A stretch of DNA of 55,613 nt, from contig LXFE01000132.1 in NCBI GenBank assembly GCA_001929475.1, positions 1 to 55,613 on the forward strand, given 5' to 3'. A model generated the notes under the pieces. It did no database searches, was not told the origin of the DNA, and was given only the letters and a program-made list of their open reading frames with translations. How positions within the stretch are numbered: the stretch's first letter is position 1; every line of letters starts with the position of its first letter. This DNA comes from Neolecta irregularis DAH-3. Lineage: Eukaryota. Shown one piece after another: positions 13,114 through 55,233 of this stretch. The translations under genes were made by a program, and so were the position numbers.

Positions 13114-15360
13114 ATGGGTTCCTTTGGCAATTCGCCTACATCGTTTCTGAATCCTGGACCAGCGCCTACTCCTCCACGACCTCTTGCTCCATCCCCGTAT
13201 TACAACGCAAATGCGATGGCTCCCCGCCATGATACCACCTCGCTCAGTGCTGTCATAAAGGCTGGCTACGCGTCTGTCAAAGAGGAGGGCTTGGTGAGTT
13301 GGCTATTTATCAAGAAATACCTTATTCTGCGCGCTCAGTTCTTGACGCTGCATAAAAACGAGAATACCCAGCCGGTGACTGTCATTGCGCTCAAGGACAT
13401 CTCGAATGTAACCCGTGTGGATCTCAAGCCTTGCTGTTTCGAGATTGTTGTCGAGCTTCCCGGGCAGCGCAAGGTTTATTACGTCAGTCTGAAAGCGGAC
13501 TCGGAATTGTACAGTTGGATGGATGAAATCTATTCTGTAAGTATTTCACTCTTTCCCTCAGGGCAGAACCCGCTTGATCTTGCCATATCCAATTCTAATT
13601 CAGGCACAATATATCAAATTCGCGTATACCTCGCTCAACCCATACTATCCGTTTTCGGTTCTTTTATGGTACGCAAAGGCTAACTGTTATCAGCGTTGTC
13701 CACTCGGTGTTTCGAACCCTACAAATTTCACACACAAGGTCCATGTTGGGTTTGATCCGGTGAGCGGAGGGTTTACTGGGTTGCCGGATGAATGGGCCAA
13801 GCTTCTCACAGCATCTGCGATTACAAAAGAGGATTATGCGAAAAACCCTCAGGCTGTTATTGAAGTGCTTGAATTCTATTCAGATATCAAACAACGCGAG
13901 CGAGAGGAGTATGGCGGACCGAACAAGGATCTGCGAGTTCCCCGGATTCCGGGGGCGCCAGAACAATGGACTAGTAATTCCCATCAGAAAGTGCCTGTTC
14001 CCGCGTCACCGCTAAAGAATTTGAATATCGGTTCGGCGGGGCAAGCCTCGAGGCCAGCACCTCGGGCGCCTGGAACGGAAGCACCAACCACCTCTTCAGC
14101 TGTGCGACCACCGATTAAAAATGAAGACGTTTCTCGGCCGTCTCCGCAAGCTCCAACCAAGGCAATACCGCCGACTCCGAGTGCGCAACCTGCCAAGAAG
14201 GCCACGGTTCCTAGTCTATCTGCGGCACCGAGCAATGTCAAGAAACCACCTTCTGCTGCGGCTCCGCCAAAGGGGACTCCCGCGGTTAAGAAAGCGCCGA
14301 CGCCGAAGGAGCAACGAATTTCTGCGATGACTGAAAGTCAAATCATGGAAAAGCTTCGGCAGGTTGTTTCGAAAGGGGATCCGAATACCACGTATACCAA
14401 GATCAAAAAAGTAGGGCAGGGGGCGTCTGGCAGTGTTTATGTCGCCAAGCACCTTGTGCCTGGCACGTCGACGCCCAAGGTTGCGATTAAGCAGATGGAT
14501 CTTGCGCACCAGCCGCGAAAGGAATTGATTGTTAATGAGATTTTAGTGATGAAAGAGTCTCAACATCCGAATATAGTCAACTTTCTTGATGCATTTTTGG
14601 TGCGCGCGAGTGAATTGTGGGTAGTTATGGAGTATATGGAAGGGGGCGCTTTGACGGATGTGATTGATAACAACAGCATGGACGAAGATCAGATTGCTAG
14701 CATATGCCATGAGGTAATAGTTTCCGCAAGAAGTGCTGATGATTTCCGACGTGCAAGGGACTGCAGCATCTGCATTCGCAGAATATTATACATCGGGATA
14801 TCAAGAGCGACAATGTGTTGTTGGACTCTGCAGGTCACGTTAAAATAAGCACGTTTCTGGAAGAGTGGCGGGGCTAAAACGATAGCTGATTTCGGGTTTT
14901 GTGCGAAGCTGACTGATCAGAATAACAAGCGGGCGACGATGGTTGGGACGCCGTACTGGATGGCGCCGGAGGTGGTGAAGCAGAAGGAGTATGGGGCAAA
15001 GGTTGATATTTGGAGTCTGGGGATTATGGCGATTGAGATGATTGAGAACGAGCCGCCGTACGGGTGAGTCATTCGTTGCTGAGGGGTAGGTATTTGGACG
15101 AGGAGCCGTTGAAGGCGTTGTATCTGATTGCGACGAACGGCACGCCGACGCTGAAGAAGCCGGACAAGCTGAGCCGGGAGCTGAAGGGGTTCCTTGCGGT
15201 GTGCCTGTGTGTGGACGTGAAGAGCCGGGCGACGGCGATCGAGCTGCTGGAGGTGAGTATTTTTGGAGGGGGGGTTAATGGTTAGCATGAATTTCTACGA
15301 AAGAGCTGCAGTCTGGGGAATCTTGCGCCGCTGCTTGCGTTTAAGACGGGCAAGTCTTGA
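13114..15360 (+). CDS. CLA4: PAK kinase of Cla4/Shk2 type (PH + CRIB + kinase), 5 introns including one GC-AG and one putative GT-CG
   Basis: PH domain, [48 protein letters not shown]. Confidence 0.93.
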
Positions 15361-15490
15361 GGGACGGGGTCTGGGAGTATTCTGAGCTTGCTAGGCATTG
15401 TTATAACATTTATTTGTGTACATGATGGTAATAGAAGAGATTGACTAGAGGTAGCTGGAGCAGATGGGAGCTAGCCGTCGTGGAGGACAG

Positions 15491-52320: not shown

Positions 52321-52955
52321 TTATGACTTCTTTTTCTCCGGCTCCAGTAGCTGAGTTAAGTGAAAATACACTCGCGGAGCTACCACTGTCCAACAAATGA
52401 CTCCGACCAAGATGATCAATCCGGCTACAGGCAGTAGGCTCTCAGGCATAACTCCGAGTATCAGTTTATCCAGAACTGCAAGAATAAGTGATATAGCGCA
52501 GACCAGGATACTTGCTCAATATGAACTCCATCTCTGGTACATTTGTCATCAAGTCTTCTATATGCGAGTAGTAAGTTGCCTCTGCAAATAAGCGGATGAA
52601 TAATATTTCATTCTCATAGAAAGTACTTAAACGAAAAGCTGTTGGCGACTTTCGAGGACCCAATCAGTCAATTTCTTTCTCTGCCGGGACCACTCACACT
52701 AGCTGCCCAGCAAACCCTTACTTCATACTTCGATCCCTCGACCAGGCCTACCAATCCGTATATCCTTTCGACTCCAAACGAGTCTTCCGAAGTCGAAAAA
52801 GCGGGTACGATAGTTTCTTGGAACCGAGGTTCATTAGGAGATAACCACGTTAATTTAGGAAATTTAAAATCTGACGTTTTCGGAGCCGTAAAGATCGTCT
52901 TTGCGGTATTCGCGTACACCTGTAAACAGAAAGCAAGCAGGGGAAATATCAGCAT
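52321..52955 (-). CDS. Pga1-like ER membrane protein (putative GPI mannosyltransferase II co-activator family), 2 introns
   Basis: Signal peptide then ANTAKTIF, KYEVRVCWAASSPTAF, ILDKLILGVMPESLL plus TM segment, KKKS C-terminus (ER-retrieval-like). Confidence 0.65.
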
Positions 52956-55233
52956 GATTTTCCAGGAAGACGTAGTAGCTGTGCAGCAGCTTATGGATAT
53001 GGGGTTCAAAAAGGATCAAGCTGTTCGAGCTTTAAAGGTATACCAAAGTGAACCAACACGCACTACTGACGATTCTGGAAAGCAAATAATGATGTTTCAA
53101 AGGCCTTTGATTATATTTTTAGTACAGATACAGACTTTCAGGTAATTTTCATTTTTCTAAAGTCTCTAAAGGGTCAATCTGTAGGACATTGATAACATTA
53201 ATACACTACAAGACTGGCCTTCTTCCACAAACGTCGTCGATTTGACTCAAGGCTTGTCCGGTTTATGAAGATAACTGATTGATCAGGCGAGGATGAAGAC
53301 ACTCGCTACGCGCGTCAATTGCAAGAAGAAGAAAATGCTAAAGGACGATCATCTGCATATAACGGCCAACAGATACGGCCACACAGTCATGAGGAAACAA
53401 AAGGCAGAAATACGACTATCTGCTCGGTTTCAAACATGCAAATAGTCCCTTATGGCCCTCGAGAATCCACACCAATCGTCGAGATATACAATGAGCCACC
53501 ACCCCATGAACGCATTCGCCAGCACGGAGCGTATGAGCATTCTAGGAAGCGGTCTTTTAACCCAAGGTCTGTGGTTATTCGCCCAAATTCAAGGTCTCAG
53601 ACAGACCGTAATGTCCTGTCGCCACTTATTCAAATTCTCTATACCATCCCACTATTTCGATCAGTTGTGCTATCCTTAAATCTTGTGTCTGAGCTGGAAG
53701 ACAGAGTGAAACTTCTTTTGGAAGAAGACGAACTTGATCAAGCGGATGATCGTAGTACTTTTCCGCTATGTAGTTCTCGCTTAATATTAGCTCATGCGAC
53801 CCAAGAACTCGTACTTGAATGGGTTCTTGCTGCTCTTCAGTATACCTTTGCGTCACTGGAACTTGGTAATCGTGCCTATGTTTCGGGCGAACCAATCCAA
53901 AAAGCCTTCTCCCTCTTCTCAATGACACAGAATGCTCCTTGTGGCGGAGGCGATTCAAGTATCAACGAACGATATTGATATGCTAATCTGAAAGCTATCA
54001 TAAATTTCTCTTCATTCTGGGACCAGCTTATGCGTACGTCTATAGACAGCAGCTGGTTTTCAGCTTCCCCGAGATACTTTAAGGGTATTTCTGTTGCTCA
54101 AATCGAACTCCTGGACAACATCAAAGGGTACATTTTGGGCATAACTTGCAACACTTAATACTCAATAGCTCATTATTCTCGACCCTAGTAACGCTACCGA
54201 ACAACCCAACATACGCCTACTTTGATATATCTGTTCGGTCGATTTCCGATGCATCAACCACACTTTACGACTACCTCGACAACATCGTTGGGAGCAAAAT
54301 CAGGGAAGGGGTCTATCCAGTTTCTTTTGCGCCCATTCTTATCATTGTTTTTCACAGTGCCGGCATTGGCACTGGAGTGTCATTGCCAGCAGAGATTGAC
54401 CTCGGCCGTTATTCCAAGGAAATGAGCAAGGTGATGGTAGAACGGTTGAAAAAAGCAGACAGTGTCCAGGCTCGTATTCCCGAATGTCAGGCAGATATTG
54501 ACAAACTTTCTTGGTTCAAGGTTTATAGTCTCATCTTCTAAGTTGGCAGCTAACAGCCTCAGACCTATTCAATTGCAGAATTATTAGCTGCTTCTCAAGC
54601 CTTTTTCAAATCTCATCCCCATTGTCACGAAAGTGATGAAAATCCTCTACCAGAAGACGGAGCTCCTATACTCGATCTGACGACAAAAATTGAGAATTTA
54701 CAGCTCCAAGTTTATAACAAGTTAGCGGAACTGAAAGACAAGAAGAAGGGGTTTGAAAGTGAAATTGAAAACTTGACAGATCTATCTACATTGCAGTCTG
54801 AAAAGGAATATAGGCCAAATAAGTATCACTTAAGCGGATTTCTGAAAACCCCTTCGGATGCATATTTTGATAATGACGGAAGATGGTGGCATACTGCTTT
54901 TTCGTCGAATTTCGGGTATACCTCCGAAGCAGTCTCATTCGAAAATTCAGTTAAGCTGGCGAAAGATGATGGAGAGATCATCGCTATCTTTGCTTCCAAT
55001 GTCGCTTGTGAGAAAGAATCTTCAAATATTGCTAGTAGTTTGAGATTGAAGGTTTGTTTCAGAGCAAGAAGTATCAGTCTGATTTCTCTAAGGAACTCAT
55101 CCTGGCTGAGAACGCCAAGTTTGATGAGGAAATTACACAAAATGGTGTTGTCAAGGATCAGAATCAGACTCAGAATGATGAGCATGCTATATCGGGTCCG
55201 ATCGAAGACAATGCAGAACCTGGATCTGTATGA
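52954..55233 (+). CDS. UBA-domain protein with SIM/UIM-like motifs and degenerate USP-like region (Rup1-like), 8 introns, first GT-GG
   Basis: QQLMDMGFKKDQAVRALKKANNDVSKAFDYIF (UBA), VVDLT, ARQLQEEE, LIQILYTIPLFR, YHLSG, GRWW. Confidence 0.7.

Follow-up and report, generated by a model that had tools for sequence, protein, structure and literature searches.

We have analyzed a stretch of 55,613 nucleotides (nt) from the ascomycete Neolecta irregularis DAH-3, the whole of contig LXFE01000132.1 (C2590 in our numbering of the assembly GCA_001929475.1, here G000, which comprises 14.18 Mb in 4,542 contigs), and refer to it as the window. It carries genes for cyclin H, CLA4, NHX1, a NIPA-type transporter, RPT2, UBC1, Hub1/UBL5, a membrane protein, YCF1, a QRI7/TsaD-like protein, NTA1, a Pga1-like protein and a UBA-domain protein, and our subject is their small introns, several of which seem to start with GC instead of GT. 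A preliminary description of the window had listed ten such donors. All ten GC dinucleotides were found in place with their hexamers, those of CLA4, NTA1 and the UBA-domain gene on the forward strand and the other seven on the reverse strand. All junctions treated below were derived from the DNA and from protein homology. The predicted introns are the following:

14849..14885, forward strand: GC-AG intron of 37 nt in the kinase domain of CLA4, phase 1, at an ancestral position
16580..16632, reverse strand: GC-AG intron of 53 nt in NHX1
18230..18261, reverse strand: probable GC-AG intron of 32 nt in the NIPA-type transporter gene (posterior 0.98)
20356..20394, reverse strand: GC-AG intron of 39 nt right behind the start codon of RPT2 (posterior 1.0)
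24472..24509, reverse strand: GC-AG intron of 38 nt in UBC1, in exact register with yeast Ubc1
38110..38147, reverse strand: probable GC-AG intron of 38 nt in the membrane-protein gene (posterior 0.98)
45302..45338, reverse strand: GC-AG intron of 37 nt in YCF1
48042..48080, forward strand: possible in-frame intron of 39 nt in NTA1, stop-free, with a candidate GC donor (posterior 0.48)
52476..52515, reverse strand: probable GC-AG intron of 40 nt in the Pga1-like gene, not called by the intron model
53252..53286, forward strand: probable GC-AG intron of 35 nt in the UBA-domain gene (posterior 0.99)

The posteriors come from a generalised hidden Markov model (HMM) that was self-trained, at first with GT-AG only and then with 16 dinucleotides allowed at both ends under equal small priors; introns with a posterior above 0.9 were taken as confident. 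The training set was the window plus 21 further contigs (773,803 bases) picked for their length, as shown by the kinase search, giving 829,416 bases or about 6% of the assembly. Besides, a spliced profile aligner compared the best GC-AG with the best GT-AG splice for each intron, with Neolecta proteins left out of the profiles. The HMM breaks down between 14 and 17 kb of the window, so that CLA4 and NHX1 are placed by homology only. A GC-rich island of up to 73% with strong strand skew lies there (14001-17000, and also at 1-500), over the convergent 3′ ends of these two genes.

Five of the ten donors can be considered firm predictions, those of CLA4, NHX1, YCF1, UBC1 and RPT2. The GC splice surpassed the best GT-AG splice by 18.5 bits in CLA4 at 14849 (profile of 114 homologues), by 26.8 bits in NHX1 at 16632 (29 homologues) and by 45.8 bits in YCF1 at 45338 (38 homologues). 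The same aligner gave ordinary ends to most of the other introns of these genes: among the 5 introns of CLA4 and the 14 of YCF1, apart from the two GC ones, 16 of 17 were GT-AG and one was GT-CG, and the 5 introns of NHX1 comprised three GT-AG, one GC-AG and one GT-GG. In UBC1 the exons stop at residue 84 of yeast Ubc1 and restart at residue 97, the GC splice at 24509 supplies exactly the 12 residues between, and within 45 nt there was no GT-AG alternative that keeps the frame. The RPT2 intron (donor at 20394) holds an in-frame stop and has no GT-AG alternative; splicing it at GC places a glycine at position 2, as is typical of this family.

Four more are probable. Frame-keeping GT-AG alternatives exist for the NIPA-type gene at 18261, where homology did not discriminate, and two frame-keeping GT alternatives exist for the membrane-protein gene at 38147. 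Reading through the UBA-domain intron at 53252 meets stops, and frame-keeping GT alternatives exist as well. In the Pga1-like gene at 52515 the nearest GT alternative implies an intron of 28 nt, and only one of 1,512 confident introns is shorter than 30 nt; its name is that of the preliminary description, and no Pfam match to such a family was found. The start codons of this gene (reverse strand) and of the UBA-domain gene (forward strand) seem to overlap head to head at 52954-52957. The tenth candidate, in NTA1, is ambiguous: against 6 homologues read-through scored 228.6 bits, the GC donor 232.0 and a GT donor six bases downstream 235.9. The window thus has 9 GC donors in 124 introns, or 10 in 125 if NTA1 is counted.

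This proportion had been given before as about 8%, and the count within the window agrees with it, while over the wider sample the figure came down to 84 of 1,512 confident introns, 5.6% (Wilson confidence interval 4.5–6.8), still above the approximately 1% it had been compared to. The GC share of the window does not differ from that of the wider sample (p=0.24), nor were the 22 sequences heterogeneous (p=0.21), and the true rate appears to be some 5–6% of introns. Expectation maximization over the 16 dinucleotides assigned 1,777 of 1,905 introns to GT, 118 to GC, 5 to GA and about 4 to the other 13 together, so that among the 15 non-GT dinucleotides only GC was elevated. GC donors were not biased to first introns (21/380 first, 65/1,134 middle, 18/315 last), and we detected no selection against stop-free introns of length 3n among GC introns (4/84, as compared to 81/1,423 for GT). 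The few GA-AG calls include two with the donor GAAAGT, at 15740 of contig C2531 (posterior 0.96) and 21668 of C1151 (0.86), which are model calls only. In the window, a glucanase-like gene (50258-51900, forward strand) that looks broken by eye, with stops and frame changes, contains a doubtful model GA donor at 51058.

As a control, the same HMM was run on 26 of 80 metagenome loci with CLA4/STE20 genes (306,488 bases), presumed to be fungal from identities of 50–90%. It found GC donors in 3 of 248 introns at posterior above 0.9 (p=0.0014 against Neolecta), with expected counts of 4.3 in 344 (1.3%), all GCAAGT; homology alone, over 50 of the 80 loci, gave one GC donor in 90 introns. When 99 GC donors were spiked into the sequences the model estimated 92, and all 52 calls above 0.9 were spiked sites. 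Resetting 69 GC calls to GT in 12 of the 22 sequences left no GC call, a control that is partly circular, and 51 spiked GA donors (12 of 22 sequences) were estimated at 50, with 34.5 of that mass at the spiked sites. In an independent homology check with 14 gene-partner pairs, 12 model GC calls were covered and 7 fell in aligned regions; of these 7, all beyond the window, 5 were backed by 7.6 to 52 bits.

The GT donors of Neolecta are themselves degenerate. Outside the dinucleotide their information is 2.04 bits vs. 3.34 in the controls, and they conserve little beyond G|GTA (A at +3 76%, T at +4 51%, G at +5 40%, T at +6 44%), while G at +5 reaches 87% in control donors. The 1,423 GT donors comprise 165 distinct hexamers, and 326 are without both a G at -1 and a G at +5. 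The six degenerate hexamers pointed out beforehand (gtttga, gtccgt, gtgatt, gtggtt, gttctc and gtgtga) are all model donors with posteriors of 0.98–1.0. The GC donors have a stronger context, 4.0 bits, with A at +3 in 93%, A at -2 in 68%, G at -1 in 71% and G at +5 in 58%. Actually, GC donors match U1 at 4.10 of 7 positions on average and GT donors at 3.06, and the GC share climbs with the number of matches, from 0/85 at zero or one match through 4/366, 22/536, 31/364, 19/135 and 5/21 to 3/3 at seven. The spiked GC donors that were recovered averaged 2.78 matches (p=2e-9 against the real ones); they lack the bias, and the compensation by U1 pairing is thus real and no artefact of detection. 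The view that GC donors here go uncompensated can only be kept in part. GCAAGT, with the AAGT context at +3 to +6, was indeed found in just 11 of 84 (the commonest hexamer is GCATGT, and the three control GC donors are all GCAAGT), but the class as a whole exceeds the GT donors by about one U1 match. Compensation is present, from a much lower base.

In other respects these look like ordinary introns of the major spliceosome. The model learned a branch point of U2 type, a CTRAY motif of 5.4 bits complementary to the GUAGUA of U2, and protein homology places GC-AG ends at the junctions of CLA4, YCF1, NHX1 and UBC1. The sequence features are those of U2-type GC-AG introns. U12-type introns were considered and rejected: there were AT donors in 0 of 1,905 introns and GTATCCTT in 4 of 1,512, with no search for U11 or U12 made.

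The geometry of the introns is very rigid. Their length is 31–45 nt in 97.9%, and the branch adenosine lies 6–12 nt before the intron end in 98%, vs. 55% in the controls. A CLA4 intron of 157 nt (13537-13693, forward strand) is far beyond this norm. The preliminary description had both intron ends relaxed, which describes the donors well and the 3′ ends much less so: these are AG in 98.4% by the HMM, with 3% of GAG and a few TG, GG or CG. Acceptors among the 1,512 confident introns were TAG in 693, CAG in 502, AAG in 268, GAG in 46 and others in 3, and the 46 GAG compare with 0 of 248 in the controls (p=0.0018). A model-wide excess of non-AG acceptors was not established, with 30 of 1,905 (1.6%) against a control noise of about 12 in 344 (approximately 3.6%). 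In the window we have identified five candidates, the first four with homology behind them:

14714..14748, forward strand: GT intron with CG end in CLA4, 15.4 bits above the best GT-AG, at an ancestral position
16468..16505, reverse strand: GT intron with GG end in NHX1, 14.1 bits above the best GT-AG
6274..6307, forward strand: GT intron with TG end in the cyclin H gene, exons abutting at yeast Ccl1 residues 92/93, posterior 0.82
46225..46260, forward strand: GT intron with GG end in the QRI7/TsaD-like gene, posterior 0.97, the next exon aligning from TsaD residue 8 with weak E-values
53038..53078, forward strand: probable GT intron with GG end in the UBA-domain gene, posterior 0.84, from the HMM only

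The odd CLA4 introns provided the opportunity to look at their origin. At the position of the GC intron 22 of 22 homologous introns were GT-AG, and at that of the CG-ended intron 20 of 20 ended in AG, in a set of loci that takes in STE20 paralogs and one or more pairs of near duplicates. Elsewhere, a gene with a GC intron has a paralog whose intron at that position starts with GT, and a pair of paralogs 70% identical has one GC donor in common. These shared ancestral positions show that the odd ends belong to old introns that were altered in place and are able to persist. Recent intron gain of the introner type was rejected on the same grounds, both odd CLA4 introns being at shared positions and one GC/GT pair matching between paralogs, with few positions tested; boundary decay rather than gain is what the sequences indicate. 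In two of the metagenome CLA4 loci (L142 and L180) homologues of the glycyl-tRNA synthetase, RPF1-like and POP2-like genes of the window lie beside CLA4, suggesting old synteny.

We have examined the spliceosomal RNAs and a number of proteins. The single U1 copy found is canonical, with ACUUACCUG, and the two U2 copies are canonical with GUAGUA. One U6 was found, with ACAGAGA present and an mRNA-type intron inside, and loop 1 of U5 is canonical. The U6 gene (L002 269-417, reverse strand, contig C1963) has a 50-nt GT-AG intron just ahead of the AGC triad, and fission yeast U6 also has an intron at that place. Variant U1 or U6 that could read the odd donors were sought and none appeared among 41 and 48 scored candidates, in a fragmented assembly. 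Genes for U1C, Luc7, a METTL16-family protein, SNRNP27 and Prp18 are all present, and the zinc fingers of U1C and Luc7 look ordinary by eye. The parts suspected beforehand, namely the U1 5′ end, the ACAGAGA box of U6, U1C and Luc7, thus show no obvious change. Loss of U1C, Luc7 or Prp18 can be discarded because each gene is present, and so can the idea that T at +4 reflects a missing METTL16 or SNRNP27 (a lead from the part of PMC10581693 that was available), both families being represented. For Prp8 only a contig of 1,294 nt with an intact fragment (C2538) was found, in which the alpha-finger region looks ordinary; Prp8 also occurs as broken partial copies with stops and frame changes (L204 and L205, in C4303 and C2568).

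Two factors related to splicing fidelity look different. The single Prp18 locus found (L198 1123-1493, reverse strand, contig C702) differs from yeast, the only comparison made, at 7 of the 14 aligned residues of the S187-V200 loop, including N190 and W193, and the exon that follows the loop gave no Pfam match. At the places that correspond to human H289 and R291, in a register taken from what we assume to be the family motif, Neolecta presumably has lysine. A 2026 preprint, as far as its available part goes, gives both human residues roles at the 3′ site. In yeast the loop reaches the active site (10.1101/212811), and deletion of the loop or of Prp18 activates GAG and BG (UG, GG, CG) acceptors, the classes most raised when Prp18 is absent, although Prp18 is dispensable where the distance from branch to 3′ end is short (PMC10711555, available part; likewise for the preceding source). 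The other factor lies in the window:

33389..34268, forward strand: Hub1/UBL5 gene, candidate factor for non-consensus donors, with about 144 extra N-terminal residues rich in Arg, Asp and Ser

In this Hub1 D22 is conserved, as is H63 by residue count. Its gene model finishes with two tiny exons, and an atlas search for the distribution of the extended form gave matches all below 0.8. According to the portions available of PMC8431670 and PMC11585973, Hub1 favours the use of non-consensus 5′ sites and reduces fidelity.

The explanation that we consider probable combines unchanged small nuclear RNAs, intron definition at an almost constant length, a threshold for U1 pairing that is one or two pairs lower and drift of T to C at +2. 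Neolecta introns would be ordinary major-spliceosome introns with a decayed 5′ signal. In an intron this small the spacing between U1 and U2 would hardly vary, and branch point and length together may restrict the 5′ cleavage site to some 10 nt, in which a shorter U1 duplex would suffice; the minimum pairing would be some 1–2 base pairs below that of other fungi. With a C at +2 about one pair would be lost, and this would be tolerated wherever at least three other matches remain, not just in a near-perfect context, and T-to-C changes at +2 could then drift to some 5–6% of introns. The threshold pattern, the ancestry of the introns and the state of the small nuclear RNAs are shown by the sequences, and definition by length and branch point, already put forward in the preliminary description, would fit the geometry. 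Several points weigh against this explanation. The actual cause may lie in the two fidelity factors, which look altered, and the protein survey was confined to a minority of the spliceosomal proteins, with a fragment of Prp8 among them. Two of the seven homology-tested GC calls beyond the window, both with a posterior below 0.9, became GT. The junctions are predictions from DNA and homology. Finally, Schizosaccharomyces pombe is a relative with short introns and intron definition. Its annotation has only 7 GC-AG or AT-AC introns in 5,041 (PMC7072748, Table S9), so that GC donors are not an inevitable result of short introns.

If fidelity proteins were responsible, the diverged Prp18 loop would weaken the checking at the second step, which reads both intron ends, or an extended Hub1 held on the spliceosome would promote non-consensus donors, or both. 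The kinds of acceptor released in the yeast mutants match those of Neolecta, where GAG is in excess and TG, GG and CG occur in conserved genes, and half of the loop has diverged while Hub1 has its long extension. However, Prp18 is documented for 3′ ends and not for +2, its loop may have decayed as a consequence of the short branch-to-3′ geometry instead of causing the tolerance, and yeast is the only reference. Hub1 with an N-terminal extension probably also occurs in filamentous ascomycetes with ordinary GC rates, and GC donors that still track U1 matches point to early recognition. On balance we regard altered fidelity proteins as an unlikely cause. A more specific version, in which introns of 37 nt with 6–12 nt of branch spacing made the Prp18 loop dispensable and let it decay, and a natural low-fidelity spliceosome with extended Hub1 has come to accept mediocre-context GC donors together with TG, GG or CG as the sole ends in core genes, we find doubtful.

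Mutation pressure or GC-biased gene conversion, opposed by weak selection, could also turn the T at +2 into C, and the A at -2 into G or C, with splicing tolerance unchanged. The DNA around GC donors has a slightly higher GC content (0.447 vs. 0.432, p=0.046), with 26/303 in the top quintile and 58/1,200 in the rest, and the GC-rich island of the window has two GC donors and two non-AG ends in 9 introns. The effect is small though, the three lowest quintiles having 14/300 each (approximately 4.7%), the 22 sequences are homogeneous, and the degenerate GT donors and TG ends would be left unexplained, so that this origin seems quite improbable. Even less credit can be given to an artefact, be it from errors in the assembly, a bias of the gene model, introns that are retained or a GU restored in the RNA by C-to-U editing. 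The two lower-confidence calls that homology contradicted, the ambiguity of NTA1 and the dependence on predicted junctions speak for it. But only GC was raised among the non-GT dinucleotides, every confident call in the spike-in was true, the controls stayed at 1.3%, GC calls dropped to zero when set to GT (with the circularity mentioned) and two paralogs have a GC donor in common. Moreover, retention would disrupt CLA4, RPT2, UBC1 and YCF1, and editing would not predict compensation by U1. A lowered U1 threshold under rigid geometry is the explanation that we keep.

The closest known class are the fungal GC-AG introns of U2 type (Frey and Pucker, 2020; PMC7072748, available part), with GC and AG ends, an ordinary branch point, canonical U1, U2, U5 and U6 and a stronger U1 match. 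In the same source other fungi have approximately 1–2.5% as compared to 5.6% in Neolecta; computed from its Table S9, GC-AG plus AT-AC introns make up 1.1% in Neurospora, 2.2% in Cryptococcus neoformans and 0.14% in S. pombe. Among its 130 fungal annotations, read by eye and not including Neolecta, most are below 3%, and Pochonia, Metschnikowia and Sugiyamaella have 5–6%. The Neolecta rate is therefore at the top of the fungal range and not outside it. The weak context of the GC donors is more unusual than their rate. The GCAAGT nearly invariant in other fungi, a typical trait that is not required for the class, is mostly missing. Very short introns under intron definition are found in S. pombe and in ciliates. 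Neolecta resembles them in the narrow length window and in a branch point nearly fixed close to the 3′ end, and differs in a far more degenerate donor, in common GC donors and in a Prp18 that is present with a changed loop; the Stentor table available in PMC9505925 lists no Prp18 or Slu7. A splicing system with GA donors is similar in that donors other than GT make up several percent and are supported by an exonic AG and by A at +3, but it uses GA instead of GC, and a variant U1 was proposed there, while the single U1 found here is canonical. Yeast with Prp18 or its loop deleted (Roy et al., 2023; PMC10711555, available part) uses the same GAG, UG, GG and CG acceptors; there they are low-level alternatives, whereas in a few genes of Neolecta, a wild organism, no other end seems to keep the frame, and the available part of that work is silent on GC donors. 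The main text of the N. irregularis genome paper (PMC5309816), which states that RNA was also sequenced, contains neither 'intron' nor 'splic', and PMC8476143, in its available part, merely names the Neolecta genome as a source. A literature search found no paper on the GC excess, most subscription journals being outside its reach.

Two other sequence features of the window deserve mention. A short tandem repeat of about 24 nt lies 3′ of RPT2 (18780-18890), and similar non-coding segments (35845-35990 and 36843-37000) stand about 1 kb apart around a small gene, possibly, by eye, the remnant of a repeat or transposon.

The public gene models suffer from these introns. Model P0001 omits the CLA4 exon that carries the HRD and DFG motifs and is flanked by the CG-ended and the GC intron, and P0121 runs into the GC intron of YCF1; the public CLA4 model also reads through the 157-nt intron and runs into the antisense strand of NHX1. 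Damaged models of an early-branching ascomycete affect the comparative studies that use the Neolecta proteome. Besides, Neolecta provides a quantified example of the decay that splice signals can undergo under a rigid intron geometry, and the graded rule, by which the GC share goes up with U1 matches, is testable on existing fruiting-body RNA. If the Prp18 and Hub1 leads hold, natural changes in fidelity factors would be linked to a genome-wide drift of splice sites, and a natural low-fidelity spliceosome, if true, would make Neolecta a wild organism living with the phenotype of a yeast prp18 mutant.

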